Shown here: in pieces, positions 1 through 64,000 of the stretch
Position numbering within the stretch: the stretch's first letter is position 1
How the letters are laid out: every line of letters starts with the position of its first letter
Source: Ascidiella aspersa
Taxonomy: Eukaryota
Direction: 5' to 3'
Length of the DNA: 64,000 bases
Assembly: GCA_963924565.1 (NCBI GenBank)
Contig: OZ004607.1
Coordinates: 25,110,001 to 25,174,000 of the forward strand
The notes under the pieces: generated by a model
What the model saw: the letters and a program-made list of their open reading frames with translations, nothing else
What the model was told of the DNA's origin: nothing
Database searches by the model: none
Translations under genes and position numbers: made by a program

Positions 1-545
1 AAAATATCTTTAAGTTGGGGCTCAACAATAATTGTTTAGGTTTAAATTGTTCAACCGCCATGTAAATCGCAACTTTTTAGGGGCACGTATTTTCTCTAGG
101 GGAGCGCCGTTCCGCAAATTTGGCACATTTTAAGCATAGCGACAAAATAGGACGAAACCAATAAGGAAATTATTCTAGGTTTAACCTGTGATTAATTATG
201 ATACAATCTGTTGAGATTTTACTTTTATGAGGTTTCTTTCGCCAGTCGTATATTGATCTAAAAACTTCTGGGCCTAAATATTTGTAAAGTTCCAATTCTC
301 CCTTCGATTGTTATGCATAGATAATGATCGTTACGCCGAGGTCGTGATCGGTTACTGGCGTCAGGTTTAATTCGGCCTAACTGTTAAATACTTATGTATT
401 ATCTGCCATAAATATAAAATGTTGATGTCGTCAAACCAAACATAGTCAGTTGACATGAGCGTAAATATATTACATTTTTTCATATGGCGTTTTTCCGCCA
501 ACAGTTGCTAAGAATTAGGGAAAAAGTATAGGCTGTGGTATGAAC

Positions 546-1039
546 CAGTTTTTCCCAAACTTTTTTTGTCGCGATCCTCTTTTTATTTTTTTACATCTTT
601 GCGCCCCTCGATCGATTGACCAGACTACAAATATTTATAATTCGGCAAAATGTTTACATTTCTAGACAGTTTGTTTTAAGTTTGGCGAGAACGTGCGGAT
701 TTTGCCAAAACATGCACGAGTAACTAAATTATTAAGGTTTATTTGCGTCATATAACTTTTTGGTTCCTATAAGAAGAAAGAAGAAAATGTTTTGTGCACT
801 TATGTAGGAACAATGGAAGATTGTCTTACTCGTAAAGTAACTTGAATAAACCACGAAACTAAAGTAAAAATACAGATTTGGGAACAGTTCAATGTTCAAT
901 GTGTGTGCTCACGTTCCCTATACTGCTATTTGTTTAGATTATATGTTTTGTTCATTTCTTTTGGTAATATTTTATTTGAAAAATAGTACACGGCGACCCC
1001 CAAGACAACCTCTTGCGACCCCCATGCGGGGAACCACTC
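546..1039. mobile_element. Non-autonomous hAT (Charlie-like) MITE
   Basis: Imperfect TIRs CAGTTTTTCCCAAAC ... GCGGGGAACCACTC, subterminal GCGACCC motifs, and a near-perfect 8-bp TSD GTATGAAC (538-545) / GTATAAAC (1040-1047). Confidence 0.7.
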
Positions 1040-1342
1040 GTATAAACAGTGCAATATGCCCATTATAAGATAAGTTTTTTGTATTGCGTGTTTTCATACA
1101 AAGCCTCTTGCCATTTGCGTGACGTTTTAGAATTAGATTGCAATACCTAGCTTTGTTTACCACTTAAAGTGTGGCGTGTTTTGGTTGCAACAACACAGTT
1201 TTGTTTCACGGCTATTTTACCGAACGAGCACACAGTCTCGACCACCCGAAATACAACGTAAAACGTCAATGCTTCTCCCACGCGACCGCCTGGCCTATGG
1301 TCGCACGTCTATCGGGTGCCAAGTGCTGTTTGTGGTTTTCAG

Positions 1343-4300
1343 CACCCGTCGCATCCGGATACCATCATCACCTGCAGGTCGTACGACTCACAAACCAACA
1401 CTTACGCGGCCGACGGCGTCCTTATCGAGATAAAAGAGCCCGGTCGGCAGTGGAGAATTTCCTACCACGGTTTGATGAGGTATACTTGTTGCGTTTGATA
1501 GCCGGCTTATCGGTGTAGCTGTCGTCTTTATGGAATTGCCCGTGACCCGATTTGAAATATCCCCACAACTTATTTCGCATAGAACTGATTTAAAAATAAA
1601 TTAACTGAAATTATTTTAATATATGTTATTACAGATTATTTTTTGACGTGGTATTGTTGATTGAAACCAGACTTAAAATATTGCCCTATTTTAAATCGAA
1701 CTAATCTAAACATTTACGAACAAGTTTGTATCACATCTTTCTTGGTCCTTAAGGGGCGGCATTTGCGTCCAGTTTACATATACACATACCCTACGTCAGC
1801 TGATGCACTCTACCGTGGCCGAAATGTTTGGCATGTAAACTAAAATTGTGCCTTGAAAGGTTCGGGATCCCTTCACCTGAAGGGCACCAATTATTGCCGT
1901 CAATGTGTTATTGTTACTATTTTTTGAACTTGATGTTGTTCTATTTTTATCAACGAGCGTGATTGAATGTAAAGTCTTAATCCTAACTTACTATCTTTTC
2001 AAACCTATTTTGTTTGTTAATCGGCAGTTATATATATTTTCTCGTTCGTGACTATTTGTCGGTTATTTTTATTCTTATCTCACTAATGCACGTGTTTGTT
2101 TTTAGAATGGCAAACACGATGAAAGAACCCTCGCGATGGTGCGACGGAAAGAACCTCGTCTATGTAAAGTTCGGATTCACGTGAGTTGCCCCAAGTGGCT
2201 GATGTGTAACATTTAACGATCTGCTTTATGGAAACTCCCTACTTACCCCCGCTTGGGTGACAAAAAAACGCGTAAATATTTTTGACTTGTTATTTCTTCG
2301 AAAAGGCTTTAAGCTTTTCCAACAATAGATTCCAAATAATAAGTACTCGCGCTAGGTATTTTGTTTCTAAAATTACGTAATAGATTACTTAAAGTCTAGA
2401 TCAATTTATAGCTGGACGTCGTATTCTGCTTGCTACGATTTAACCAACAACATCGACCCGCATATTTTGTCCGAGGCAACCGCCCGCGAATCGTGGTCTT
2501 ACAACTTCTTCCACAAGTTGCAAACGTAAGTCTCTTTTAAAGATTTAATTACGACGATTAAAAGTGATTTGCTGATTAAAATAAGGGATTTGTATTTACC
2601 CCTTCGATCGTTGTTTATATGCAATTTTTGTTTATATGCAAACATTTCAACTAACCAACTTGATCTTAGCAATATGAATGCACCAACTGCATATGAGTAA
2701 TATATACATAGACGTACCTTGTAATAAATACAGTATATAGAATTCTTAAAACCTTGTAACATAGACCATTTCGCAGTTTTCGGCTCACCCACACCAACTA
2801 CGAGCAGTGGGGTCAGCTGCGGGGCACCTTGTACGTCGACGGGATGGAGGAAGGACCCATGGGGCGAGAATTAACCCTGAGAGGAGCCAGGAGTCACTCG
2901 TTCGGGCTCATTAACTACAGCGCTTATCACAGATACATCAGGGTGCACGCGCACACTCGGAACGGATTAACTATCAGCTTGACGGCGGTGTGCATTAGCG
3001 ACATATTAACACAGTGAGTCAAATTTCGAATTTTCGACAGAACGACATCAACCAATATATCAAACAGATTTAAATAAGCGAAATGTTTTCCTAAATATTT
3101 GGTCACTCATTTAGGTAACTTTCATTCTCGTGGCTTTAGGATCATAGCCGTAAGTTTTTATTTAATTTCAACATACAAATATTAGTAATTGATATTTTAT
3201 TTCGGAAAAGCTACCAAAAAAGTTAATCTATCCGATTGTTAAGCAATGATAAACATCCGTGTTTGTGCAATATCCACCCTGCGGCACCGTTTATCCACAT
3301 AAAGCGTGCACTTGTCGGTGTCAGCTGATGGATTGTATATTGTACAGTGGTCGTCTACCTGAATATTATGGCGGTCAGATTAAAATCAATGTTCTTAGCA
3401 GATGTGGTTTTATAGGCGCCTCTTCATTGGGTAATAGCTAGGCTAATCTACGTCCTTCAACTGCTTCTCTGGATTGCTTGGGGCCATAATTTTCCAAACA
3501 TGCGTAAATTTGAACTATGAAGACTGATAACGACGGTCTTAAAATTGTAACGTGTAGGCACTTTTCCGTTGCAGCGTGACGAGCGGTTATGTGGTGCTGC
3601 CCAATCGTACGTTGGAAACTATTACTTGGACCGATTTGTCCCTTAGACGACACGGTGAAAACGGATGTCTGCCAAACCTTATTCAGTTCAACCTTACCAC
3701 TGGTAATTTTGTGTATGATAATCGTTTCATTAGCAACTTATGTTTTAGTGTTGCAGTGACTTTATCCACATTTAAATATATTGCTACTTTGTCGAAGATA
3801 TTAAAGTTTTTAATTAATCGACTTTACAACAATGTTCGATAAAACTCGAAATAAGTCATCACGACGTTTTTCTTTTGTTATTCTTTTGTCAAGTTGATCT
3901 CCTATTTCGGCGTTCACTTTTCTCGGTTTTAGGGCATTAGTCATACAAAAACAAACATGTACAAAACGCTCTTTGTTCTGAACTGTTCGACCCGGGACCC
4001 GAGCTCTTACAACAACAAAATAATCGTTTTACATTTTTAAAACGTTTAAAGTGAAGTTTACACTGAGTCATACGTGACAAGTTGGCAAAGTTTAGTCATA
4101 CATAACGAAAAACTTGATGAAAAATTAGATACTTGAAGAAGATGTATCTATGTTGTAGAGCAGTGTTTCTCAATTTATAAGTCGCGACCCAATTTTATGT
4201 CGCTGTTTGATTTGGTTGGGTCGCCGACTGCAGTAGTTCTAGGCGGATAGATTTTTTGAAATTGATTCCGGTCAAGATGTCTTTAAAATTTGAGAAAACT

Positions 4301-7300
4301 TCGGTTCAAGTACGATGAAAAGCTCATAATAATTAAATTCGAATTTATTCATGTTATTTGTCTTTTATTGTGTTCGCCCACAAAAATTTAAGTGACAAAA
4401 ACTAGGTCGCCAAACTTTCGTAGTTATACTTACTTACTCTTAATATTTGGGTATCCGCGATAAAATCTCCTATTTTTTTTTATCTCCTTTTTTTCTTATT
4501 GTGATTTTACTTCGTGTCTTGTTGGCTTTGTGTGTCAGTCCCTGACGAAGGCTTGCCGGATAGTAAGCCGAAACGTTGGTAGAAAATAATATATATTGCC
4601 AGAGGAACCTGTTTTAAATATACTATGCCTGGTAGCAACAGCATATTTATCCGCGATAAAAGTTTGAAAAACATTGTTGTAGAGAAACAATAAATTTTCT
4701 TGCTGTTTTCGACACTGTTTTTTGTTGTATTTAAAAAAAAACATTTGTTAGGCGCTTTGTCTTGGTTTTGAGCTTGAAAACGTTCCCCAAGCAATGCTGC
4801 ATTTCGTTAATTAATATTCGCATGATGTATTATACTACATTGCAGCCACCCAGAAGTGCAATGTGGTGTGCCTGGTCGGTCTATCGCCCGAGATCAACAA
4901 CGGTTCAGAGTGGGAGGGGAGGACACACAACTGCCTCGCCGATGTTTATGTCAACTCTGTGGAGGGGAGGGGAACTGTGGAGTTCTACTACAGGTTCGTG
5001 GATATTATGCCACCATGTATCTGTTAAGTGGTTGCGACGTGTCCAATGTTTTTGGTTTTTGCTGTGGAAACGGTAGTGCTAAATCACAACATTTGGTCGG
5101 CGCAGTTTGGCTTACAGTATATTCGCCTTATTTGTTTTTGTCGACTGGTAACAACAACTCTCCTCTGCAACGTTTGGAAAGTGACAGACTAACTTAATCA
5201 GACTTTAATCTACTTTGTAATATTCTTTATTGCTCAATATTAAATTTTCAAGCAGACTGAAATGCAACTGATTTTCGACTATAATTTGCGCGTTGAATGT
5301 CCTGTATGTCCTATCTTGCGCTTCCTGTACTAGTACATCGGCGCTCTTTTTGCCACAGGCGATGATTTTAAGCACCAATTAAACTCTCGACCTCAACTTG
5401 ACCTAAAAGCGGTCATACAAAGACTCTTTTTAAAGAGGGCATAAAAAATACGCCTTAACTTAAAAATATTATATTATTTTTTACGCAGATCCAAATTATT
5501 AAACTTCTTAGATTTCTTATCTGTAAAAACCTTTAGTCACCATACGATGCAACTCAAACTACATTATACAGTAGAAATCTGCTGTCAAAATCGCAATATC
5601 CCACTTATGTTTTGACGCGTCACGGTTAACCAAATGTGAAGAGGCAATGATTTATGAGATCTTCCAGACTGGTTAAACGTCGTGCGGTTTGTACGCCACA
5701 CTACTGGTTTCTCTTTCCAATTGTTACTAAATGTTCAGTTAATGCAATAAATAATATTGAAATTTAACGATCGTCAGAACACCATCTATTGTTTGCCCAA
5801 TCGAACGCACGAAGAAGCCTTCACCATTCGCCTTTAAATTTCCTTCGACCGACTCTACCAAACTTGCTCTTTGTTTGAACGAAGAAAGCTGCCAAAACCC
5901 GCAGTTCGTCGGCGAGTCGGGATCACAACTCGCCAAAATCAAATCTATCATCCACAACCACAACCTTTCCCAGGTATGGTATATGCAGTGTTGTAAACAA
6001 GTCATTTCGGAATGACTGAAGACCCAGTCAAGTCATTTATAAAACAACTTAAGTTCTTGTCAAGTCTTTTTGAATAAATAACAAGTCAAGTCCCGGTCAA
6101 GTCCTTATCAAATCAAGTCAATTCCAAGTCAACTTGTTCTAATAACAATTACATGTTAAGTTGTTGAAATTGGGTAAACTTTGTCTGATTACGAGCAATA
6201 CCTTGACAAAAAATAACAAAAACGCAATATACGCCAAGCAAATTGTTTGATAAATAACCCAATTTTACAAAAAATTGCTGAATGAAACACTTAATTTTAA
6301 CCCAAGTCATTTGTCTAAAAGACTTAAATCAAGTCAAGTAATTGTGTCCAAACACTCAAGCATTTGTTAACAGTGACTTCCAATTTCGAGTTTCAGCAAT
6401 AAGAAAGATACCTTTCCGATATTTTAACGAAAGTCAGGTTAAAATCAAACGTTATTTACAGTTTTATGTGATGGACGGATTCTGCGTTTCTGCACATGCA
6501 TTTTGCTTACATGTTGAGGTAAGTCGCTTTTGTGACTATTACAACAATGCAAGTGCAATATTTGTAACCGTATGGGATCGAATTTATTTTAAACGCGTTA
6601 CATGTTTCAGGGTAACAGCGAAGTTAAAGAACTACTTGAGACCATGCAGGTCGTACTGAGGTGAGATCGTATTAAACATTTAGATTTATTATTAAAACGC
6701 TGTTATTTAAAACTATTCATTATTTTTACCAGGAGCAATAACAGCGAAGATTTGAGGAACATTTGCAACAGGTACGGTATACTATGCATAAACAATGTTA
6801 CGCCGTAAGTGATTTGTACTGTTAATTGCTGACGTGAAACAATACTAACATGTGGTTCGCCTATACAGCTTTATTTATTCATATATTTCTTAACTTTTAG
6901 ATGTTACTCGGCCTTTATCAATTCAACCTTTTCCGGGTCTCTCGCATCGGAGCTTGCTTCTAAGTTTAACAATCTGTCAAATATTAGTCGGCGGATGGCC
7001 CTCAAATTGGTTGTGTCTTCGTCGTTGGTTGGGGAAAGTTCCTTATGTGGTGACGAGTCGCAAAAAACTTCTTATAGCGATTTGACCAACCTTAGTCAGG
7101 TAAATTGAGCCTAATCTTTTTTTTTAACGGATTATTTGTGGTGTTGTGGTATTTGTTTACGAACTGTTGCTACTTAGGTCATGAAAAGCATTCTGAAGTG
7201 CTGGGCAAACCAATGTGCGTACGAAGCGGTTCAGTTTCGAAGGTAAAAACAATACTAGAGTTAGAATAAATTAAAGAGATTTTCGAAACGTTCGAAATGT

Positions 7301-10300
7301 TACGTACTTCTATATGGGATTTAGTTTTCCTGCTATGCTGACTAAAACCTTTAACCGTTATGCTCCAGAATTAGAATGTTTTAGAGCAATTTAACGTCGC
7401 GAATTTTATCGTCAAAACAAGTAACTTTAAAAAGAGTAAGACCAGAAATGTACGTTCTGCAGACAAAATTGCTATCCTGCCCTTCCCGCGGTACCCGTGT
7501 TAGTGCATGCGATGGTCGAAGATCCAAGAGCTTCGGGAGTTATAACCACTTGCGATCCCAACAGTGGTGATCCAACCGTTCTCTACTTAGACGCAAACTA
7601 CGTTGTTAAGAAGGTAAAATGAAAGTCAAAACATATTTTTTTACCGTAAAGCATAGTTTTCGAATTTTTTTTGTTTTTATTTGGTATTGGATCTAATTTA
7701 AAAACATAAAAGCGGCGTAAACAATTATTTTTGATATTAATAATTTTATTCTTCCCCCAAAGTTATAAACTAGGTATTTATTTTAACTGTGTCTCACAGG
7801 TTACTGCGGTAGATCAATCTCAACCAGATCGGATGGTATTGCGACGAAGTGACGACGGGTCGTTTCGAATCGTCTCGCAAAGCATTGGATTAAAACAAAA
7901 GATCACCAAGAATGGTAAAACCAAGATTTCAATCTCGTAGAACGTGACATGTGAATCATGTTTTTGTTAAGTTATTTCCGTAATACCCGGCTGACTGTTC
8001 CAAAAGTAATACAATGTCGTCTTTGTGTAGTTTAGTATAGATGTTATATATAAACAGCTATAGTATACTAAACTTGTCACATAGATTTAAGCTCCTAAAT
8101 TCAAAAAAGGATACATTCTAATTTTAATTGCAGATACTTGTTTGTCATACCGGATATGTTTGACAACTATCCTTAAGTTTAAAACCTTAGCGGGAAATTA
8201 CAAAAGGTTTATAACAATGGCAAATTTAAGTGTTTCATTTGTGCAGGTCAGTCAGGACAAGTAACTCCCAGTGACTTTTCAGTGGAGTATGTACATGAAT
8301 GTTGTCTGTCTTACGATAACGTGCAGCGGTTGGGGCAGTTGGCGCTCGACCTCAAAAGCGCGTTTCGTCAGGATAGAGAAATGTGCTGGACTACGACACC
8401 GGGAAAGGTGAAGCGGTTTTGTTTGGTTCCAAAAACTATGACGGTATATTTGTTGAGGGCGATTGCATTTTTACTAAATTTGTGGCCCAAAACCAAATTC
8501 ATCAGTTTTTTAAATTCTATATTGTCAAATTAACAAAATAATTTTTGGTAAAATAATTAATAAAGTACCGTAACATCCTAAATGTTTGTCTTGTAGTATA
8601 TGCAAACATTTGCTAGTATTAAAAAAGTTGTTCCGTGCCTTACTTTACTGCAAATATTACGTATATGTTATTATAGATTTCTCCCAATGTGTTGCAGGAA
8701 TCGTTAAGTTATTTTTTGTTAAGGAATGTGTTATCTTTTTTAACAAATTTAACAATTATAATATTTGACGATGACAGATTTACCTGACTCGAGTTTGTCG
8801 CATGTCGGCCGACTACACGGAGTCCGAGTACGAAAGTCTTCACGAGTTCGACTCGGCCTACTCGCTTGACGCTACTCGCACGAGTACAGAACAAATTGGG
8901 TAAATTATGACGTTTTGGCCAATTAGTACAAAATAAAATTATAATCCTACATAAACTCGGTTCCTTAAACTTTAATTATTATTATTTTTGTTGAAAAGCT
9001 GTCTGTGAGATGCAAATATTATTGACCGTAAGTTCTACACGTATTCGCCATTTTGGTATACTTATATTTTATTTATTTTTGGTATATTTATTTTTTACAG
9101 GGATGTTTTACCTGAGATTTCTACTCCATTGACGATTTCAACAGTTGTCTGGTCAACCGCCCTTTCCTTAAAGGTTTGTAATCTTCTTATTGTGTCAGCA
9201 CAGAAGAAAGAAACTAAATTATTATTGTGAACTAAATTATTGCGATTTTTGTTTAGGATGTCGATTGTATCGGAAACTCAAGCGAAAGCGAAGGGATGGT
9301 TGCCAGCGTTGCTTGTGGAAGAAGCATGATTAACGTACATGTACGGGAGAGTAGTTACATTTGATCAATGCTAAAAGTAACGATACGTAAATCACAAATA
9401 GCGATTTGGATAAATAGTTGATTGTAGGTGGGCATTACGTTTGTATTTTAAATGTTTTATACAGGATATGCTCCCACCATCTAACATCTCCAGCTTCCTC
9501 GGAGTCGACACAACTGGCTTAATTAGCAAGTTGAGCGAAGAACAGATAACCGATTATCACGGAACAAGTCTTTCAATACTTCAACGATTGCAAAACAAAC
9601 TATCTTACGTGGTAAATATTTTACGTTTCGTTACAATCAACGACATGATTGATATCCAGGCACAGTAATGAATCTTGGTACCCAGGTGTACGGCACAATA
9701 TTTTTTAAACATCTCTAACGAAACGAACGTTATCATAAATTCATGTCCAAAGGTATTCCTGTAATGTTGTAAGCTATCAATAAACTAGGTATATCAGTCC
9801 ATGTCAAATATATTTTAAATTATTTGTTTCCAGTCAGTGAGGCGTAATTGCTGTGTTTTACTCAACAAACGAAGGTTCTTTGCATATCTAAGGATTAGAA
9901 TTGCACAATCGAACGGTACAATAAATTGCTCCATTCCAAATATTCGACGTTCCTGGATGCAATGCGCCATAGAATAGACTCAACCATATTAAATCAATTT
10001 ATTCCTGTCAAAGCAACAACCCGTCAATCGTTTGCTTAACTTTTATAACATAAATTGTGCAATAGGCTATATACTAACTTTTAAATATATTTAAATCTGG
10101 TTAGTAAATCATTTTTGCCTTGCAATATTGCAATCAATAAACAATAAAGCAATATAATTTTTTTACAACGCAGTTTAAGATAAAATCATCCAAGAAGCAT
10201 CCGCACTTGTTGATGAACAAAATCACGACGCTCAAGCCGACCGAAATTGCCAGTGCTCGTGGCGAGTACAGCAGCATCGCCGATTCTATACTGCCATGCC

Positions 10301-13300
10301 TCCGTGACGTCACGAGATGTTACGTCATCGCGTGTAGGAAATTTTACCTTCTCGAGGAGGTTTTAAAGGTCGTCCTATCCGGTCACAGGAAACCAGGTAA
10401 CGTGGGTTACCTAAAGGTAATCTGGTCAAGCGTATACCTATATCAGCAATATCATTACATTTGTACGCTAATCCGATTTACGAAAGTAGCCTAATTGGCA
10501 GTTTGCTACGGACTGCAATTACTCTACCCCTCATCTGTTTTTCAGCCAGAAATAACCCTCATTTATTTTTAGCCAGTAATTGACCTTGAGAAAAACATTA
10601 TACAGGAGACACTTAATCTGATAATCGACTTTACCCACCTAGAAGTGTGAAATGTTGAAGTGTTTTGTGATCTAATATGTATTGAGGTTTTAGTAATTTG
10701 TAATTTGGTTTTTGTAATTATACTAATAACAATGGTAAGCGTAAAGCATAAGCATATAAGTATGAACTTGATTCTAATTTTAAATCACGAAAATTAATTT
10801 ATTTTAACCTTGCTACCACTTACTTCAACTATGATTATACGTTGGCGCTCGCGGCGATTCTAATTCCACCTGTCTGCTTGTGACGTAGCTATGACGCCGG
10901 CGTTGTCCCAAGACCTTGGGATGATCTTGTGCGCACCGGATGGAAACGCACCCGTTACTATCGCAAATTACATTCAAAGTTTGTCGGAAGCGATCGTTGA
11001 CGCGGGGTTTAAAGAGGAGTTTGTGGCAATGAAGCCTTTGGTGAGTTGAAAGTATAGATCAAATCTGGCGTTTAAAATGTTTGAAAAATATTGGGTTTTC
11101 AAATTATGAATAAATTGTCCAAGAAGTTTATTTGATTTTTCATAGCTTTGCAAATGCCTTGTCACTTTATTGTGCCTCTGGTTAATATGTAAAAGGCATT
11201 TATTTACCGATTATACAATATAAAATTATTATGGCGCCCAATATAAGTCTGGCCTTTTTTAATAGAAAATTTACTTTTCATTTTTTAATTGTGTTGTATC
11301 TAACTTATATTTATTGTTACCTATTACGTTTCACGCAAATCCAATTCAGTTTGATATTATCTTGGGTTTGTTCAATATTTTACGACCTGTCTTTTGGGTG
11401 CGTCCAATTTTTGATCGTGACAAACTGGTCCAACTACGCCCATCGATCATAAACATTGTGCTATAATTTTATACCCGTAAGCGTAATGATACGTCATGAC
11501 GTCTTTTGGCAACACAACGATGCTTTTAAGGTCAACTAACTCACCTTCCGGGCTAGATTCGATCATATGATTAACTTAAAAGGTTATGCTGAGCTGCTAT
11601 TTTTGAAAGCACTTTTAAGGAGCCAAAAGAAACACAGCGTGTAATACTAAGCGGTGATAGCTAATGGCGTTTGACTCTTATTTCCTACAAGAAACGAATA
11701 TAACAACTTATGTGTTGATTTACTGTTTGCGAATACAAAATATCGCGCAAGGCGTATTGCAAATTTGGGTGCCATGTTTTTTAAAGAACCTGCTTAAATG
11801 TATGCTGGTTTATTTACGTCCTTATTTACAGAAAGCCGTAAAATGGCTGAACAGCAAAGATTGCGGCAAAAAGGTTAGTGAGTTGTACGGCGACTTTATG
11901 GAAAACCACGGCCACCGATGCTTGGCCGAACTTGAATTACGTGAGCAATCCTGGCAGCAGGACCAGACCAAGGTGGTCACTGCACTGCAGGTTCGATTAA
12001 GCTCGATTTAAACGAATATATTTCTATACCTGGCTAAGCCGTACAATCATCAAGTCCATTGTTAACTGTTGTGAAAGGTACATCAACGTATTACTAAAGA
12101 AGTATCAAAATAAAAAACTCGACTTGAAATAATAAGAAACAGATGTACTTAAACAAAACAAATATTTTTGTAGTGGATAGTCATCTTGCCAAGCTAAGCT
12201 ATTTCTCTAACAAAGTGACATAGGCTACTTTTCATAAAAAAATAATTTGAAGAATAATGTGTTGCATTGGAATTGACAAATCTACGACAAATATATGAAT
12301 TGTCTATGCGTAGAATAGTTACATTTTGAAAACAGTACTTGATCTGGACATCCGTTAAAGCGAGTGCTACTACAATACGTTATTTTTGATAAAGGGATTT
12401 TAATGGTTTTATGTTACCTGATTACTGATTATTCTGCTTAAACTCTATTTTGCGCTTTGATTGGGTGGGGCACCAGGCCATAATCCCCACAACTATATTT
12501 TGTGCCACATTTGAAAATGCCAATGTAATTTTTTGCGCTTCTCTTGTTTGGGATACAAATTAGGTTTCGTACTTTCAAAGTTTCCTCGAGAACAGCAAGT
12601 TTCTTATGATTACTTGTTTTATGATGTCACGTTGCGGCGCAGCTTTGTTACGCCATCTTCAAAATCATTTTAGTGCTTCTCAACAAAAATCCTATCTCCA
12701 CACCTACGATTGTGTATTTTTTGCTATTGGTATGATACACGGGGTATAGGCCGCGCGGCACAGGACAATTGCAAAATTGACGCGTGATAAGTTATGAACC
12801 ACTGGTTTACCAGTTTTTGTGTTTTTGTGTTCAATTTTTTACCAATACAGGTAGACCTATAGTTCCTAAAAATGTTTTTACGTAGGCAACTGTGGAATGC
12901 CAAAGCGAAAGAAGATCAAACATCAATCTGAATGTTGACAGTCTGATCGACAAGCTAAATTCTTCGGTCAACTCCTTTCAAAGGTAGCATAATTATTTTC
13001 TACTAATGTAAAAATATCATCGCCTTTCATTACTAATCATCGCATCGCATTACTTTCGAATCATTGCTTTAGGCTTTAGTTATTCAAGACACTAAACTAA
13101 CTTTTGGTACATTTTCTAATGTTTGCAGCTTTCCTCCCAAAGCGACATATTATTTGATATACAATGTATTTTAATTCAATGTTTTTCACATCACAAGTTT
13201 ATTGTATCATAACAATATGGCTGCTTAATACTGTTTAGATTTCTCCTCCGTTCAATAATCCCCTGGACGCAGAACGCCGTCCGAGAAATGGACTGGAGCA

Positions 13301-15193
13301 AATCCCAACAGATAAAGATAGTCGACGCGTTAAAAAAGTCATATTGGACGCTGGCCAAGATGCTAAGAACAGAGGTACAAGTGCACTGTTTTCGTCGTGC
13401 TATAAGTTTTGTCTTTTTATTTGAAAAAAATTAGGCCTCGATGATTATCACCGAGCAGTTTAACGTCCAAGTATAGATTGTATTTTTCACAAAGTTGCTG
13501 TGTTTGTTTTAAATCTCTAAAAATCTTTAGATAGAAATATACCAGTAAGGTCGTCAAAATAGCATGAGTGACAAAACTTATTATAAATTGGTCATATTGC
13601 AATTTAGAACTTGTTGCCTGACGAAGATCTTCTTTTCTTTCTTACACATACCGAAGTCGGAAAAATGGTGAAATCCGCCATTCCTTTGCCCAAGCTCGTA
13701 GCAAGGTAAAATCATCACTAATAGTGCGGAGTTACGAAATACACAATAGCTATATATTTGAATCATTTAATTTGCTACCTGTTTGCTGAACTGTCTGGTT
13801 GGTAATGAGTAATGACTCAACTACTTTATCTTTATTTGACCACCAGGTCGATCAAACGGCGTCACATCCATTCACGTCAGAAGAACCTTACTCTTTCGCC
13901 CACGTGCGACCGAATACCGCAAGAACCAATCACTGAGTTCTCTACCAACGCTAACGAGAGCATAGCGTTTAACACTGTGCTGCAAGGTGTCGCTGTGAGC
14001 GGCGCCAAAGTGCGGGCCCCGGTTCGCATTGTGTCCGACCTCTCCGAGGCATTTTTAATTGAGGTGATTTCTATTATATTAACCGCTACCGCTGAAGGCC
14101 CTATGAGGTCACTGGCTGTATAACATGAGACCCTTTTGCAAATAGGTTATGGTTGACTGTAGTGCCTCATTAACTTAATTAAGTAAAAAGCAAAGCTTTT
14201 CCAACAAAGATTTTCCGACATTTAAGCAGCTTGACAGGCGGTAAAAATGAAATTAATTTTTATCAGTTTATTCATTAAATATTGTGTTTTTATAACACAA
14301 ATTGTCATATTTGATGAGTGACCCTTTATTTACGGCTTTACGTTTAACACAAAAACGACATACTGATATTATTAAACTCATATTATATAAGGTCAATTTG
14401 TATCAACACTTTTGTTCCTAATGATAAAGAAAGTGTTATACACGATTTGGTTATTATTTCTAATTTCATTTTTATTCTTATTAATGTAGCGTGTAAAAAC
14501 AGTTTATCAAAAACTGTTTTGCTAAACAATTAACTCTTTCCATACTTACCTTATTTTAACTTCTCTGATAGGCAGGAGAAATCCTTATAACCGAAAAACC
14601 AGATATCGGTTGGAGCGTGTACTACCCTCTAGTGGTCGGTTTGGTGACGGAATGCGGCCGCATGTTGTCCCAAGGAGCACTTGCCGCGGGCAGATACGGC
14701 CTCCCCTGCGTCGTTGGCATCAGTAACGCAACAAAATGCTTCAAAACAGGTTCCTCTAATTTTAAAGTTATCAAAATTGATACGTTATTTTACGAAACCT
14801 GTAATCTCAGTTAAGGAAAGCCATTTTAAGATGTTAAAAAAAAACTATACATCCACATTACAACATGCCCAACTTTTCAATTTTTGCCTTTTTTAAGATT
14901 GATATTACTAGTTAACGCGTAAAACTGTGTTACAAAATCGAAATTTGATTGAAATTTAGCAATGATGACGAATCAATATAGGCTATGCTTAAATCTATTT
15001 TTATAGTTTCCACTTTTGCCTAGGATAATGTTTCTTTATTTTATGGTGTGTCAAACTGTGGTTGTTTTTGTTTAAAGTAATAATATATTTTTACCGTGCA
15101 GGCGATGTTGTAATTATGGATGGTACCAATGGAACCTTGCAACGGGCTGTTGGTGGATTGGCCGCCGGAGATACAACTTCTCTTCATGCGTGA
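1343..15193 (+). CDS. PigC/rifampin phosphotransferase/PEP-synthase-like protein (N-terminal beta-barrel-like domain, ATP-grasp, substrate-binding domain, swivel His domain); catalytic residues degenerate; 5' end unresolved
   Basis: 28 phase-compatible GT-AG exons: 1343-1479, 2106-2180, 2412-2525, 2777-3013, 3575-3702, 4846-4993, 5778-5973, 6462-6518, 6611-6660, 6733-6771, 6901-7099, 7178-7242, 7463-7613, 7800-7914, 8247-8407, 8778-8899, 9101-9173, 9257-9340, 9465-9611, 10174-10396, 10889-11040, 11832-11990, 12886-12983, 13239-13374, 13608-13705, 13847-14063, 14572-14749, 15102-15193 (TGA). They sum to 3651 nt, or 1216 aa plus stop. Recognisable motifs: DGFCVSAHAF, ILKCWA, SGVITTCDPNSGDP, LHEFD, VLPEISTPL, HGHRCLAELEL, LPDEDLLFFLT, GEILIT..DIGW..YYP...GLVTE.G..LSQGALAAGRYGLPCVVG, GDVVIMDGTNG. 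Confidence 0.88.
4466..4647 (+). mobile_element. 182-bp hammerhead-bearing retro-insertion (retrozyme or Penelope pseudo-LTR-like)
   Basis: Flanked by the exact 14-bp direct repeat TATCCGCGATAAAA (4452-4465 and 4648-4661). It lies inside a MITE, is non-coding and contains a hammerhead core. Confidence 0.72.
4540..4579 (+). ncRNA. Minimal type I hammerhead ribozyme motif
   Basis: CUGACGA (4542-4548), A, 7-bp stem II GGCUUGC/GUAAGCC (4550-4556 / 4563-4569, loop CGGAUA), GAAA (4570-4573), a palindromic ACGU mini-stem III, predicted cleavage after U4577, and a 2-bp CC/GG stem I. This is the layout of Penelope-associated minimal hammerheads. Confidence 0.7.
5986..6375. repeat. Degenerate CAAGTC-rich MITE-like repeat
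   Basis: Starts CAGTGTTGTAAACAAGTC and has numerous CAAGTC/GACTT units. A related remnant lies at about 17047-17370. Confidence 0.45.
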
Positions 15194-15229
15194 AAAATTT
15201 AAATTGTTGTATACTCGTTTTGTTTTAAT

Positions 15230-15282
15230 AATAAATTTTATCGCGCCCATTTATTCTGTTCGTTGATTTGCTTCACAATAAA
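15230..15282 (+). terminator. Candidate polyadenylation signals of the PigC-like gene
   Basis: AATAAA at 15230-15235 and 15277-15282, just after the stop at 15193. Confidence 0.5.
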
Positions 15283-37000: not shown

Positions 37001-40000
37001 TTAATTGTGACAGGAAATACCACTTACCTGCCTATAAACGATTTGGCCAAGTTTTTCAACTACACGATCCATGTGACCAGCGCTACTAAAATCGGGGAAG
37101 GACCTAAAGCCGTTATTAGCTTCCAAACTCTGCAAGACGTTCCGTCTGACGCGCCACGGAATGTACAGGTAAAATATAGACCTCGGAAACCATTTTCACA
37201 ATGTTTTTGAAGAGAAATACTCCAAAAAAATAAAACAGGCTGCGCGTATGACAATTTTTGCATATGTTTACAAAGACCTTCTATAGTCATAATAAACATA
37301 AAAGGATGCTGAAATGTTTGTTTAAAATATTGCATTCAGTTTGTTCCAATTTAGTCAAACCCCGTGTTAGCTGTCAAAATTTTAATATGTCAGTGAAATA
37401 TTTACCAGACAAGGCAATATAATATCGGGCTGTTTGTTTGATAATCGTAAAGTAAATCGCATTTCAAACAGATCACTAAATGTAAGGTTCATAAACAAAC
37501 GGTCGTTTAGCATCAAGAAAAACTACAGGTCTTTTATTTTTAGGTTGATGTATTTTCTCGAAACATGACCTTGGCATGGCAGGCGCCGCGAACCCCAAAT
37601 GGAATAATTAGCAACTACACAGTCAGCTACAGTCAAATAACTTCGGTTGAAATGGTTGAAGTGGTGACATCTCCACAAGTCACGTTGTTAAATCTGAAAC
37701 CCTTTACCATCTACGAGTTATACATAGCCGCAACCACAAAGGCCGGCACTGGACCTGGGGTTCTAAAATCTGTGCAAACAAAAGAAGATGGTGGGTTTCC
37801 ATTAATTGATTTTTGTTAAGTCTGTAAATCCCGACAAGACGTTTCTACGTTTGTGCCATTTTTTTTTTATGTTCCCTTACTTTTCTTTGCAGCACCATCT
37901 GAACCAAGCGACCTTTCGTGTGAAGCCATTGGTGAATCTAAAATTTCTCTCAAATGGGGAAAGTCTATGGAATCCAACGGAATAATTGTCGACTATATGG
38001 TGCAATATGGGAAAAATGGAATAGAAGGATTAAAATCTTACAGACTTTCAGTTGACCGTTTATCGGAAGAAGTAGGGCGATTTACTTACACGTTGGAACT
38101 ATTGTCTGCTTTCACGAAATATACCGTTCAAGTAATGGCTGGTACCAAAGCTGGATTTGGAATACCTGCAGTTTGTGTGACCACAACCGGTCAAGGACGT
38201 AAGTTGCAAAACATTCATACACACATTAAAAAATCATTTTATATACCAAACGATATACAAAAATATATTTTTTGTACACCTGAGCTTTATGTAAAATAAT
38301 GGCATCTATAAATGCTGTTCAATGTCCCTTAAAAGTACTGTAATCATTAAATTTGTCAAGTTGCTTGTGTCTTTGTATTTGAAATGCCGTAAAGTAAACT
38401 TGATGTTGCAGTTCCTTTGGCCCCCGAACAAGCCGGCGTAACAGAAATCAGTGACACAACAATAGAAATTTGGTGGCGATCGCCATCAATTGTCAACGGT
38501 GTTCTTGTTGGTTATGACGTCACTTATACACCCCCAGACAACTGTCTTGGAAACCAAGGATTTTATGAAAATATAACGGTGAAATTAGTATAACTAATAT
38601 CAAGATATCCCCGTGCTTATTTTTACCAATTATTACGCTCAGGGAGAAAAGCTACGGAAATACTGCCGCATTGTTAAACCGTAAAGTTTCATTGTATTTA
38701 AAATTAAAGTTTAATTTTATGAAAATGGTTTGCCAGACATTGGTCGTCAAAAAAATTTGTTTTGAAATACTCTTCAGGTGTGCGTCATTAAAACAAATAC
38801 CACCATGACGTCACGCACCCTCAGCCATCTCAGCAAGTTTACCGAATACGTCATACACGTTGCAGCGCAGACAGGGCGTGGCATTGGGCCACCTACGTCA
38901 TCGATTACGCAACGAACGAGTGTGGGAAGTGAGTGTAGTGGTCATTTAGAAACTGCTGTCAACTTTTTCTGTCATTTTCATTTTCGGTGGAAATTGGGGA
39001 TAATATCCACTCCCATTATCCCAAACTAGTTATAATTTACAAAAAGTGATTTGCCGTTCAAATTAATGTATCGACATTTACGTCTAAGAATCAGCTGTAA
39101 GAAAAATTATAAAACAATGTTTAAAAGAATAAAACAATGTTTAAAAGCAAATTATTGACTTGTATAACAAGAAAAGACAATTTATTTGTCGGTATTTTGT
39201 TGAGCTACTAACTTTATGTGGGCTACCTCGTTTTCGTAAATGTCGATGTCAATTATGACTGCTAATCGCATCTTTAAATTTTAAACTTCGTGATCTGTAA
39301 TGTTTGGCGATTTTATTATTTGTTCAGAACCCGATCACCCACCGCGTGACATTAAAGCCGTGGCAGTAAGTTCGACATCAATCAACATTACGTGGGACCT
39401 GCCTCTGGTGCTAACAGGTCCAACCTCCTATAAGATTAAAGCTGTAAATTTGGCCACAAATCAGGTGATGTAAATGTTTTGTTTTCGAATAATACTTTGT
39501 TAAATTATCTTTGCAGGAATCATTATTACTATTTACAAAAGTAAAATACGTAGTGATGCACATAATTTCCCAGCTCTCTTAAGCATAATTGTGCCAAACT
39601 AGATTTTTGTTCAATATCAACGCGAGCCATTTTATACATTGAAAAATAAAAACTCTTTTCAAAAAAAAGTTTTTGCACTTAATGTATTAGTATTACAAAA
39701 AGCATCGACGGCGTATGTTCGGCAAAAACAAACAAATATCACAGTGTTTTGTGGACAACGTTGCACGTGTGAAGAAGGTAGTGCGACGCACACAAAATAA
39801 AAATACAATAAAATATGATTTAACTATTTGATTGATAGCGAACATTAAATATAGGGCGTAGTTATAATTGTAAAATATCAAACCTATTCCCTAACAAATT
39901 AGAGGCGGGAAACTTATTACAAAAGTCATCCACCAGATGACAGCAACGAAACACATCGGCCGTAGGGTGCACTTTCGCCACCGCCATCCGACCGCTTCAA

Positions 40001-43000
40001 ACCGGATCCATCCGGAATCGCGAGTGCCTTCTGCCGCGTTTTTTAAGTCGGCCATTGCCAGATTTGTTAGTCCGGTAAACATTGTAGCGCCGTTGCAAAA
40101 GTCGAAGGAACAGCATGATTTGCACTGCGAAATAGAAGTGCTCCACTCGCAGTATTCGGGTCCATTCGAGTCTTTCCTTTGTCCAGCCGTTCTTCTTTTC
40201 GGCGCCCGCTTGTCCGAATGGGATCTGCAGCTTTCAAGTCCCGGTGGTCCGCAGCCGCGAAAGTAGTTCGACTCTGAGTTCGGTTCTCGCTCTCGGCTTT
40301 CGATAGTCTGTAGATAAATTTAGGAAAAATTTATCAAATATTACAAGATTAAAAGTTAGCGAATATTACAAAGTCATTCTATTTGCACTGTTACACGTAT
40401 AATGTTGGAACTATAGTTGCTAATGTCATAGAAGAACGCCTATAGTGGCAATTTAATAATTCAAAATTTATGATTGGGAATAAAAAAACACCTACCCAAC
40501 AAACGTCGCCCAGGTCACACTGTAACTGAGCACTTTGATCTTTTAACCTAGGTTTCGCACACTCCATTCCAGAACAGGCGTAACATTGCGGAGCAGCTGC
40601 CTTAAGTGACTTCATTGGCCTCATTGCTACTTTAGCACTATTCTGCTCGTGCCTTGTCGCTTGTAGCGTCCCATTTTCGTGCGCCGCCTCGCCGAGGTCA
40701 ATCCAAATGCCGTCTTTCGCAGGGATGGGCGAAAATTTAACTTAAACATAAATGAATACGTATAGTTGCGACTAGCGAGTTTGTAAGCCTACAAATGTTG
40801 TTTTGAAAGGTGGAAATTTTGCTTTTTACATTAGACTAGGGATTTAAGTGTCGCTTTATTGTGATAATATGTATTAAAAAAAATAATCACATAAAGTGTG
40901 CTATAAATAATGCTTTAACTTTACGGGTACACAAGTGTCGTTAATTACCTACTTACCGTTTAACGAAATTGCCTTGACCACAGCTGTAAACAGAGTTACA
41001 AGAAATAACATAAAAACAATTTTTTCCATTTGGAATTATTACTTCCCTATTCTAGCCCTTTAAATACATTTTAAAACATAATGCTAACAGCGATGATTAT
41101 GCATTTTCCCAATTGTTTGGAATTTATATGCTCCAACAGAAACTATTTTGTTGAAAATGAATAAAGAGTTATTCGAAACGTTCAAAATTATACCTATTTC
41201 TGTATGGGCTTTGATATTCTTATTACGTCTTACTACAACTTCCAACCATTGCTCCAAAGAAACTATTTTGTTTTGTCACTTCTTTCACTAACGCTTTCCT
41301 TTTACTACCAGCGAGCAAGAATTAACTGTAAGCAGAATATTCACTGCCAACCTATCTCATTACAAAAAACAGATAGATTCATTGCAACCCTATTTAGGTT
41401 GGGTGAGCTTTACGACCAGTAAAGACAATATAAATATGTTCTTCTTAAGCAATAAACCTAGTTTTAAACTACCGGTTCGCTGAATAGTCAACAAAAACCT
41501 GACAACCTAAAACCAAAGGGGACCACGTTGCATTTAATATCTTAACTTTTATTAGAAAACTAAAATTCATCACGGGAAACGGTGTGCTATAAACTTGGCA
41601 AAAAATTGCAGCATTGAATTATTCTGTACCTAATCCCATTTTATGGGCTACAATTTAGGAGACAACTGAAGCGTGAACGCTGTAAAATAAAAAAAATCCT
41701 AAAAATATATGCATTGCTCATAACATTTATGATATATCAATCGATAGTTATTGCTAAATATTTCCTATAAGGAAATTAACTACTTAATACTTCCTCAACG
41801 ATTTTGCGAAATGTATATAGTCCAGCGATATTTTAACTCATATATATTTGGAGAGCATTCTCTCGATTCCGTTATTACTCACGCCAGTTCATTTTCGTAT
41901 CTGTGAAAGCACTGTGTGCCAGGCTCTTTGTGGTGCCGCTGCTGATGCCACAGATGTTCTCCCGCATGCATCGATTCACAATCTGTCATTGTTTTCGAGT
42001 GGCAGGGCAGCACAGTAGCGGGGCCATTTAAGGCTCCTGAAACACAAGGCTGGGTCGTTTAATTAGTAAATCAGCTGCCTAATGAGGAAAGCGACACACG
42101 TGTCCACTAATTGGAACTTAAAATGCTAACCAGCACTACATTGTAATGCTGCGCAATAGATGAGGATGCCATTTTAAAGTCGACTAACTCGATGCATTCA
42201 ACTTGAGTAACCAAGTTGAAGATCTGTCAACTAATGGATAAATTTTACAATCCCTGTGTTACACAGTCGTTGGTTTCAGGGCTGTGTTAATTATATTTTT
42301 AAATGAGCACGGTTGTGTTTCAGTTAACAACAAAAATCTGACCACAAAATATAGCCTACATTACCTGTATAACATAAACGTAAACTTTATGTACTAACTC
42401 AATGAATCTAGTATAAACGGACAATGAAGGCCCAAATTGCTTTCGTAAAATGAAGGAAAGATGCAGCTAAATTGTTATATAAACCTGTGGCCGTACCCCT
42501 AAAACCATGCATTAATATTAATATCTTCTAGAGTCAACAGTTTAAATACTTGTTACAAGCGACTTGTCTCAATCACAGGTTATACTTATTTCTCATTCTG
42601 TTTCTGTGAAAACATACCTTTATTGAGAAAATAATTTAATAGAAACACAATAAATAGATCCCGGGTGTTTTGATGACACTGACTGAGTGAAGTAAGCGAA
42701 TACATTGTATTTGGAGGGGCCTTAATTTAATTTGAATATTATCCCAAAATTTATGGCATTTAGGACTTCTATAAAGCCCGCCTAATTATTGATTGGAAAT
42801 ATTTTTAAGTTAAAGTGACATATGAATTCACAGAATAAAACATCACCTACATAAAACGTAGAGAGTGTTTTTTTTTCCATTTGAAAGGGATAAATTTTCT
42901 GAATTGGCCACAAAAATATGTACGAGCTAATTTCCCAAAAATTGGATAACAGTAGATATTGTATTACAATTGTCGTGATATAGTTGTTTACGATGCTTCA

Positions 43001-54511: not shown

Positions 54512-56088
54512 TGTTTTTAGTTTTTTAAACCAATACCGCCTTTTGGTGTGTACATATAGACCATGCCTATACCGCACGTTGTTTTGAAGCTAGGATACAG
54601 TTTTAACAAAAGTACTGAAGATCATAAAATATTTTCAGATTATCTAATGCTTGTACAATGTAAGATAATAAAGTAATATTTTAGCGTTTCGCTTCTCATA
54701 GCCGTGGTTCTCAAACTGTGACGATTTTTAGGAAGTACGCAAGCAGCTTTTAAGGTATTAGGATTAGTGTAAATTTGATAACTATTGCGGCTTACATAAG
54801 TTAAGCCTACATTCTCTCTTTGCAATATTAAATCGATGTGTTTCAATTTTTGCGACTGTTGTAAACCGCAGGTAAACTAAAGAATTAGGAGCGATTAGTG
54901 TTACCAATTAGACCAAGTTTCTCTTTTAGTTAATTGTCTCCCATTCATATTAATGTCCCATCGACCTAGCTATTGCTTTATCCCACCAATTATACGTAAC
55001 CAAATGAATCGATATCTATATGTAATAGGTGTTGCTTTTTGTGGAATGCAGCTATACACTAATGACTTTTTGTCTATAAGTAAATTATAATTCCTATGAA
55101 TAATTTTAAGGTGCCACGTCTCGTCTTAAAATAAAAGTCAATTTCAACCAACTAAAAGCAATTTTTTTTCGCACTTTGAATGATTTAGCCTTCATTTTGT
55201 TGGAGCTACAATTTGCGCGAGAATTTGCTCGAAACACGACATGGTTTCGTATAAACTTTAGGCAACATGATTCTCATAAAATGGAAAACAGCCTATTTTA
55301 AAAATTGGGTAAAAAACAATATAACCACAGACAAAGAGGAAAAAGATATATTTTGCAAAAAAGAAAGGAAAAATATCCGCTCTAGTAAAGAATAAAGGTA
55401 AAAACCTCTCCTCCAAATACAGTGTTTCAGAAATTGCGCTTTGTGGAATAATTCTTTAATGCAAGCTTTTGCGTAATTCATATTACAAAACTATTGGGTT
55501 TCAAACCTCATAATGGGCGTCTATACTTAACATCAATATAAGTGGGTGCTCTTACAAAAAGGTAATAGGGTAACTGAAATTCGTATTGGATATCAGCGAT
55601 TCTTTTTGTATTTATCACGTAAAGCGCTCCTCGTTTTCTAAATTATATTATTTAGTAAAACAACGTGAAAGTCTGATATTAACATACAAACGTAGAATTT
55701 CAGCCTAGGGCCCGTCTAAAAGTACTTCAGACTGAAAAGTTAAGTTGATCAGAAGGCACAAACTATAAACTCATTGCTATTAGGCTGCGTGGCAGAATAC
55801 ATTGTCATAATAATCTGGTCAAATAACTCAGTAAGATAACAATTAAAAGAGTGAATGCTTTCAACCACATTGAAAGTGTCTGAATTGATAAAAACATTCC
55901 AAGAAACTAATATAAGAAAAATTATAAGCATATATCTAAACAAAAAGAACGTTTCTTAGAAACAAGCACGAAAGGGTAACCCTGATTAATCAAAACGTCA
56001 ATTTAATTTTCGTAAGATCACGCAATACAAAAGCAAGTTCCCACTGATTAAAATAGAAGCAATATAACGAAAAAGTTATTACATCGTT

Positions 56089-56275
56089 GGCCTCATGCGG
56101 ACCTGGTGCGTGCCTTATGCGATCCTCATGTGGGCTTCATGCGGGCTTCGTGTGGGCCTCATGCAGACCTTATGGAAGCGTCATGCGAGCCTCATGCGGG
56201 CTTATTCGGGCCTTATGCAGGCCTCATGCGAGCACTATGCAGGCCTTGTGCAAGCCTCATGGGGACCCCATGCTG
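56089..56275. repeat. 11-bp minisatellite (GGCCTCATGCG consensus, about 17 degenerate copies)
   Basis: Periodic ggcctcatgcg / agcctcatgcg / ggccttatgca units in a GC-rich intergenic island. Confidence 0.85.
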
Positions 56276-63927: not shown

Positions 63928-64000
63928 GTTTGTTAAAACTGGCACATATTCGTTAAACGTCATACAGTTAAATCGCAATGCCAAAAAGACCAGAATGCCA

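Follow-up and report, generated by a model that had tools for sequence, protein, structure and literature searches.

A predicted membrane-anchored pseudo-dikinase with a conserved N-terminal barrel in the ascidian Ascidiella aspersa

The gene and its transcripts

The DNA analyzed here, called the window, is a stretch of 64,000 nucleotides from the ascidian Ascidiella aspersa (contig OZ004607.1, positions 25,110,001 to 25,174,000), and it carries most of a gene for an animal protein related to the dikinases rifampin phosphotransferase (RPH) and PigC. The gene model, rebuilt by hand and checked by script, has 31 exons joined by 30 GT-AG introns, with one stop codon, on the plus strand. It encodes a protein of about 1,351 residues when the exon-21 donor is placed at 9340; the residue numbers used below (Ser462, Gln1294, and so on) follow an earlier spliced model of 1,349 residues. 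Three exons lie upstream of the window, with the gene start 2.15 kb before it, and 28 lie inside it from 1343 onward. An initial annotation, made by a model from the sequence alone, had described a 28-exon gene at 5778-15193. The open frame and good splice sites of that description hold, but the interval contains 22 exons, and 5778 is an internal splice acceptor, with the gene start elsewhere. The gene is laid out as follows.

L002:7649-7751, 8390-8541 and 9610-9759 (+): exons 1-3, in the flanking sequence L002 (L002:9801 is window position 1); ATG, hydrophobic anchor at residues 3-21, basic residues, a second helix and the start of the barrel
1..1342 (+): the part of intron 3 inside the window
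1343-1479, 2106-2180, 2412-2525, 2777-3013, 3575-3702 and 4846-4993, in the region 1343..5778 (+): exons 4-9; main part of the predicted N-terminal double beta-barrel, residues 85-415, with the labels DUF7064/DUF7065, Rv3169 and 25-phosphosteroid-lyase-like
2799..2918 (+): region of the barrel motif; YEQWGQ (2799-2816) and R-S-H-S-F-G (2889-2906) are retained, the next conserved R-x-W read as I-x-Y (2910-2918)
5860..8810 (+): exons 10-19; degenerate ATP-grasp (PPDK_N-like) domain, with Ser/Ser/Ser at the Lys22/Arg117/Thr136 equivalents, VVKK for GLGE and RxC for QxR
8811..11013 (+): exons 19-24; substrate-domain arm, the most diverged part (25% identity to Clavelina), with the exon-21 donor at 9340
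11014..13883 (+): exons 24-29; apex region (Rph_4th-like), with HGHRC..E and LPDEDLLFFLT kept, Met-Asp at the Arg666-Glu667 equivalent (13288-13293) and the Lys670 equivalent retained (13300-13302)
13971..15145 (+): exons 29-31; C-terminal His-swivel (PEP-utilizers) domain, with phospho-His replaced by Gln (CAA, 14671-14673) and RE by GR
15191..15253 (+): stop codon TGA (15191-15193), AATAAA (15230-15235) and transcript end near 15253, placed from the size of an RNA contig

Judged by profile and alignment scores, the frame that bears the motifs is real and above chance, because its His exon exceeds the cut-off of the Pfam PEP-utilizers family (PF00391; 38.6 bits against 23.1) and because a spider homologue matches the gene model over residues 103-816 (E 1e-54) and 1016-1334 (E 7e-46). 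The coding sequence has a GC content of 0.49, against 0.34 for the introns, and the order of ATP-grasp domain, substrate domain and C-terminal His-swivel domain is that of RPH/PigC-type dikinases. A Pfam profile scan of the barrel exons gave no family, and PF27448, considered as a barrel family, was discarded because it is Rph_4th. Two further candidate exons, at ~3933-4050 and 5359-5440, were also rejected: neither has a fitting donor, and the spacing of RNA contig pieces leaves room for 6 nucleotides only. High-copy intronic repeats occur at 4200-4650 and 5986-6370, where contig depth reaches up to tens of thousands; one of the pair contains AAGTC-rich units that recur at L002 ~5350-5420.

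The gene is transcribed and spliced. A 2,566-nucleotide contig has pieces on 2777-3013 and, in exon 23, on 10173-10394, with depth at the allele sites of exons 5-8 and zero depth at the intron sites between them. The two pieces lie 1,735 nucleotides apart, against 1,729 in the first gene model, and a GT six bases on, after 9340, fits in frame; the exon-21 donor was therefore moved there. The size of a second contig fits a transcript running from exon 25 to the 3′ end near 15253. In a stranded RNA run under the same species label, first mates mapped to the minus strand in most of the exon bins, which indicates sense transcription, and several intron-only bins had no reads. With about 6% of this run, depth stayed below 1x, and the splice junctions are placed from the depth and lengths of contigs. 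A processed retrocopy would be expected to give similar contigs; genome searches, in which few candidates are scored, did not find a second locus. Absence of transcripts had been named in the initial annotation as a sign of a decaying pseudogene; spliced transcripts are present. Variation within the species was drawn from 40 of 263 rows of alleles, 37 of which were used. All 12 indels, among 33 listed alleles, are intronic (p ~0.04), and the six exonic single-nucleotide polymorphisms divide into 3 synonymous and 3 nonsynonymous.

Dikinase residues and the Clavelina orthologue

Every catalytic motif change reported in the initial annotation is present at its position in one open spliced frame: VGESG (5908-5922), VVSSSLVGES (7010-7039), GDESQ (7049-7063), LVHAMV (7500-7517), NYVVKK (7596-7613), EMCWT (8378-8392), LTRVCR (8784-8801) and MD (13288-13293), with LSQGALAAGRYG at 14665-14700 as the region of the phospho-His motif. 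The structural motifs HGHRC..E, LPDEDLLFFLT and GLPCVVG are retained, as had been noted. RPH-Lm (PDB 5FBS/5FBT/5FBU and 5HV1; PMC4844700), the solved structure that best matches the family profile (E 2e-147), and the prodiginine ligases PigC/HapC (PMC13534948) are described with the same domain order; the window protein differs in its six replaced key residues, in its extra anchor and barrel, and in being encoded by an animal gene of 31 exons. The RPH positions Lys22, Arg117, Thr136, Arg666, Glu667 and His825 correspond to Ser462, Ser568, Ser586, Met1127, Asp1128 and Gln1294. In the mutant series described for RPH-Lm, Lys22Ala, Arg117Ala, Thr136Val, Arg666Ala and Glu667Ala abolish rifampin phosphorylation, the phosphate is carried by His825, and the Glu297Ala mutant is active (PMC4844700, Table 2), so the DIEW change would not be fatal by itself. 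The HapC study agrees on the roles of the His and the Arg (PMC13534948). Because residues essential in RPH mutagenesis are replaced, the dikinase chemistry is predicted to be dead, and loss of the ATP-to-His-to-substrate transfer is, judged by these residues, very likely.

Comparison with homologues sets these replacements apart. Among 88 homologues of 1,200-1,400 residues, taken from 120 listed and mostly chelicerate, the equivalents of Lys22, Arg117, Arg666 and Glu667 are kept in 88/88 and the His in 87/88 (the remaining one has a gap), and the residues that the window protein carries at the K22, R117, R666, E667 and His sites occur in 0/88. All 12 key positions are intact in the shark and abalone proteins, which lie outside that set; the window protein keeps 1. 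When columns were compared against a reference set of 89 rows that includes Priapulus, again with shark and abalone as outside controls, 81 conserved ATP-grasp columns were kept in 70, 66 and 33 cases by shark, abalone and window protein, respectively; across the invariant kinase columns the window protein keeps 22/51 polar and 55/87 structural ones. The earlier proposal that selection maintains the fold holds less well for the ATP-grasp domain than was implied, as its structural residues are eroded relative to both controls. The Clavelina orthologue falls below the NCBIfam equivalog cut-offs (PigC, 188.6 of 1300; RPH, 160.5 of 999), as does the intact shark protein (321.9 and 363.3). By descent, the window protein is a member of the animal RPH-like family, but on the three sequence features checked it is outside the active dikinases.

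Members of this animal family, annotated as 'rifampicin phosphotransferase-like' or 'putative PEP synthase', were found in shark, hemichordate, sea urchin, molluscs, priapulid and chelicerates. They have the same architecture as the window protein, a length of ~1,300-1,350 residues and homology over all domains, and the full-length non-ascidian members compared keep the kinase residues that the window protein lacks. Many paralogues exist in spiders and other chelicerates; their kinase residues are intact, but they lack the barrel R-x-H motif. One Araneus record begins with a transposase-like N-terminal fusion (residues 1-440) that is probably an annotation artefact. In a record from a side-necked turtle, the ATP-grasp domain is partly eroded and the sequence stops short of the apex and His domains; this may be an intermediate of decay or an annotation break.

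The age of the loss can be approached through a second ascidian. A HMMER search of 1.84 billion representatives with exon 7 gave 14 matches, 4 of them repeat-like or partial, of which the best was a protein of Clavelina lepadiformis (E 3e-13); a word-index search with the same exon gave zero matches. The Clavelina protein (XP_076800887.1 / CAK8678017.1), to which automatic annotation gives an active-sounding enzyme name, is an orthologue that forms a clade with the window protein at 100/100, shares insertions and derived residues with it, and begins with a similar N-terminus in the region of the anchor. In both Clavelina records, Cys stands in place of His and Cys-Arg in place of Arg-Glu, and the GLGE and DIEW glutamates are replaced by Lys. 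On the question raised in the initial annotation, whether orthologues retain the catalytic residues, the answer is divided: Clavelina lacks the His and the Arg-Glu pair, as the window protein does, but keeps the Lys22, Arg117 and Gln equivalents, and its barrel motif is the more depleted of the two. Of 138 invariant kinase columns, 47 are lost in both ascidians, against 28.7 expected (p 3e-10), and the new residue is the same in 8 of the 47 and different in 39. Because the orthologue also lacks His and Arg-Glu, with different residues in their place, the comparison indicates that the ascidian pseudo-dikinase is old and not a fresh pseudogene. A single loss in a common ancestor, with the sites thus released drifting for a long time afterwards, would be the simplest reading, as against two separate losses.

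The N-terminal anchor and barrel

The first 415 residues, an anchor followed by a predicted double beta-barrel, were overlooked in the first reading. That reading had proposed an intact gene with dead chemistry kept by selection, and the lost residues, the transcripts and the protein-level constraint support it; what it missed is this first third of the protein, where constraint is strongest. Residues 3-21 are hydrophobic, with the best 19-residue hydropathy (2.45) at residue 3, and residues 16-35 include five basic and zero acidic residues. Charge alone would predict an N-out anchor with the remainder of the protein in the cytosol.

Residues 85-415 are homologous to the whole of 419-residue bird proteins, to sea-turtle proteins and to a 421-residue Aplysia protein. 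These barrel-only proteins, which carry the motif in birds (including chicken LOC776594), sea turtles and Aplysia, are likely to be stand-alone animal lyases or hydratases, and the literature searched did not describe them. A model of the bird homologue is predicted as a double beta-barrel (pLDDT 86.9), and the fold was transferred on the basis of 35% identity, over 316 columns, to the shark barrel. With this model, the first Foldseek match was 25-phosphosteroid lyase (E 1e-11, TM 0.50, 17% identity), and VIA gave six chains, namely, AttH, Fsa2, kievitone hydratase, CghA, a pericyclase and 25-phosphosteroid lyase, at Z 20-25 over 273-286 residues with rmsd 3.2-4.2 and the next match at Z 7.4. 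The Atlas match was to DUF7064/DUF7065 (0.96) and tocopherol cyclase, and the NCBIfam match, to Rv3169, was weak and below the cut-off (E 3e-5). Searching PDB by sequence, either with barrel proteins or with profiles, did not retrieve 25-phosphosteroid lyase, and 9FZN could not be aligned by sequence. Through the bird homologue, the window barrel is thus predicted to resemble in fold 25-phosphosteroid lyase (PDB 9FZN, 9G2I and 9G4C), DUF7064/DUF7065, the Rv3169 family, AttH NE1406, kievitone hydratase and Fsa2/Phm7/CghA. It differs from the 25-phosphosteroid-lyase-like barrels, with which identity is 17-19%, in its fusion to a dikinase and an anchor and in the partial loss of its motif.

In Sterolibacterium, dehydration of a tertiary sterol alcohol is described as a two-step process carried out by a kinase and a phosphosteroid lyase (PMC8449060, PMC11061730). 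The idea that the bacterial 25-hydroxysteroid kinase is RPH-like was dropped, as it is described with a sequential ternary mechanism and not as RPH-like (PMC8449060). A Sulfitobacter barrel homologue shares the polar motif of the animal barrel. At the one locus seen, its gene is the fourth to follow a phosphotransferase gene, and both are on the same strand; the run on this plasmid (L009:1397-6765) comprises a phosphotransferase, an AMP-binding protein, an acyl-CoA dehydrogenase and the barrel gene. Used as a query, the Sulfitobacter protein gave 4 relatives, all close. Rv3168 is presumably a phosphotransferase as well. Rv3168 and Rv3169 are reported to form one operon (PMC5340868).

Between the two ascidians, the barrel has evolved more slowly than any other domain. 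The window protein and Clavelina are 48% identical in the barrel, 29% in the ATP-grasp domain, 25% in the arm, 43% in the apex region and 43% in the His domain, against means among eight intact homologues of 36, 45, 31, 43 and 60%, respectively. Distances to Clavelina are 1.01 for the barrel, 1.42 for the apex region, 1.74 for the His domain, 2.40 for the ATP-grasp domain and 3.97 for the arm. In pairs of intact proteins, the barrel does not lag behind the ATP-grasp domain in rate (0.96 versus 0.91; 1.31 versus 1.12). With the tree fixed, the barrel has an ascidian distance of 0.15 (0.12-0.19) relative to the rest and the ATP-grasp domain one of 0.48 (0.37-0.59), and the barrel ratio was the lowest in 60/60 bootstraps, with and without Limulus. 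Conservation of this kind at the protein level supports constraint.

The likely active site of the barrel, judged by conservation, is a polar set shared by 14 non-chelicerate homologues (Tyr91, Glu253, Arg282, His284, Arg289, Trp291, Tyr297, Glu394 and Glu411), most of which recurs in the bacterial homologue. The bacteria-to-animal motif (Tyr; R-x-H-S-x-G-x-R-x-W; two Glu) was built on one bacterial sequence, and it is incomplete in the window protein. All 13-14 non-chelicerate homologues that span these positions have Tyr91, Arg289, Trp291 and Glu394; both ascidians have lost them. The window protein keeps 7 of the 11 polar columns common to the bacterial homologue and shark, and Clavelina keeps 4, having also lost Arg282 and His284 with its barrel framework kept. 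His284 is present in 0/15 matches to a spider query (8 named chelicerates and 7 without a species name, assumed to be chelicerate), all with an intact kinase. The two halves of the protein appear to change independently of each other; the ascidians have damage at both sites, and their barrel framework is tightly held.

What the protein may do, and its neighbors

The window protein may be a double pseudoenzyme anchored in a membrane, its barrel serving to bind, carry or sense a lipid-like ligand; we consider this about evenly poised. In intact relatives, a hydroxyl of a hydrophobic substrate would be phosphorylated at the membrane, and the barrel would then expel the phosphate in the manner of 25-phosphosteroid lyase. 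His and Arg-Glu would have been lost first, in an ascidian ancestor, and the ATP-binding Lys and Arg later, in the lineage of the window protein. With its framework kept and its polar pocket partly lost, the barrel could still bind, carry or sense the ligand without turnover, the apex region likely remaining as structural support and the ATP-grasp domain as a relaxed spacer. A broader scheme is more tentative and somewhat doubtful: animals may have a one-chain, membrane-anchored, ATP-driven lipid or sterol dehydratase that combines an RPH-type dikinase with a phosphosteroid-lyase barrel. Its halves would be lost independently: only the barrel is left in birds, chelicerates have the kinase without the barrel motif, and in ascidians the whole chain would have become a double-pseudoenzyme lipid sensor or carrier.

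Several observations weigh against the double-pseudoenzyme reading. The ascidian sample is two species, and their sister position to vertebrates is weak (49/84, in a tree without a bacterial outgroup). RNA depth is low, and the run that gave the spliced contig is of unrecorded library type. The ratio of nonsynonymous to synonymous polymorphism per site is ~0.29 (3/537 versus 3/154 sites), a difference short of significance (p 0.13). Between the two Clavelina records there are 23 residue differences, evenly spread (8 in the first 415), and extra constraint on the barrel is therefore not visible at that level. The barrel fold of the window protein is carried over from a model of its bird homologue. 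A hint against cytosolic topology comes from N-glycosylation-type sequons, 17 against 9.9 by shuffling (p 0.01, one of 18 tests). Finally, the window protein keeps Arg282, His284, Glu253, Tyr297 and Glu411, and its barrel may still be an enzyme.

This last point leads to the main rival, which we judge unlikely but well worth weighing: the barrel would act as a phosphate-eliminating lyase fed by a separate kinase, or as an ATP-free lipid hydratase or cyclase, with the dead dikinase as a passenger. The retained residues, the 21/30 conserved polar barrel columns kept, the slow evolution of the barrel, the barrel-only proteins with the motif in birds, sea turtles and Aplysia, and the predominance of lyases, hydratases and cyclases among solved structures of the fold all speak for it. 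Against it stand the four lost residues that are common to the bacterial homologue (Tyr91, Arg289, Trp291 and Glu394) and the case of Clavelina, in which the framework is held without Arg282 and His284. A ligand-free scaffold or adaptor at the membrane, possibly facing the lumen or the surface, is less probable still. Five domains remain in frame in both ascidians, the apex region is also relatively slow, and the sequon excess would suit such a protein, but the five basic and zero acidic residues after the anchor predict a cytosolic body, Clavelina has no sequon excess, the two ascidians share 1 sequon column, and no partner is known.

Pseudoenzymes commonly regulate active paralogues, and spiders have many paralogues of this family, but the suggestion in the initial annotation that the window protein regulates or competes with one is very improbable. 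Searches of its own genome with the His exon, PF00391, the bird barrel and the intact shark protein matched this locus only, with few candidates scored and absence thus unproven, and a search with PF01326 matched nothing and missed this locus as well. We find it just as improbable that the gene is decaying slowly without current selection. The low identity of the ATP-grasp domain and arm to Clavelina (29% and 25%), the low RNA depth, and the eroded or missing kinase half in turtle and bird records would fit; 31 exons without a stop or frameshift, spliced RNA, listed indels confined to introns, and a barrel 48% identical between two ascidians whose catalytic sites have drifted apart do not. Least probable of all is continued use of ATP by a changed chemistry, as a nucleotide sensor or by His-free direct transfer, since the Lys22, Arg117 and Gln equivalents kept in Clavelina are all lost in the window protein together with the GLGE and QxR motifs, and the ATP-grasp domain is among the most accelerated.

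We return to the double pseudoenzyme for what it would mean. A dead version common to two ascidians implies that something besides phosphotransfer has been worth keeping, and it points to the barrel. If the one-chain dehydratase scheme is correct, the dead ascidian protein would trap, and hence identify, the substrate of the animal anchor-barrel-dikinase family, which is widespread from spiders to sharks and birds and carries misleading bacterial names. Set beside the intact proteins of shark and abalone and the barrel-only one of birds, the dead ascidian form makes the question of what the family does testable. The literature searched held no RPH/PigC-type pseudo-dikinase without its His, and no paper on the function of the animal family or on the ascidian form was found in a search that most subscription papers lay outside. 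The nearest case is PspR of Haloferax mediterranei, an RPH-like protein reported to have turned from an enzyme to a noncatalytic role; as described, it binds DNA and retains both the ATP domain and the His (PMC10948481), whereas the window protein lacks the catalytic residues and is predicted to be membrane-anchored.

The remainder of the window holds other features. A large receptor protein-tyrosine-phosphatase-like gene at 17345-51608 (+), with a possible start near 16034, has a C-type lectin exon, many FN3 exons and a PTP domain. Inside it, Cys-rich exons at 39894-40741 (-) had no match in a Pfam scan; we take them to resemble a small Ly6/three-finger-type gene. Exons at 58432-64000 (+) resemble MFS/organic-cation transporters, with a weak MFS_1 match and a presumed likeness to SLC22. 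The segment at 56052-56617 is tandem-repeat-like and has long open frames in all three plus frames.

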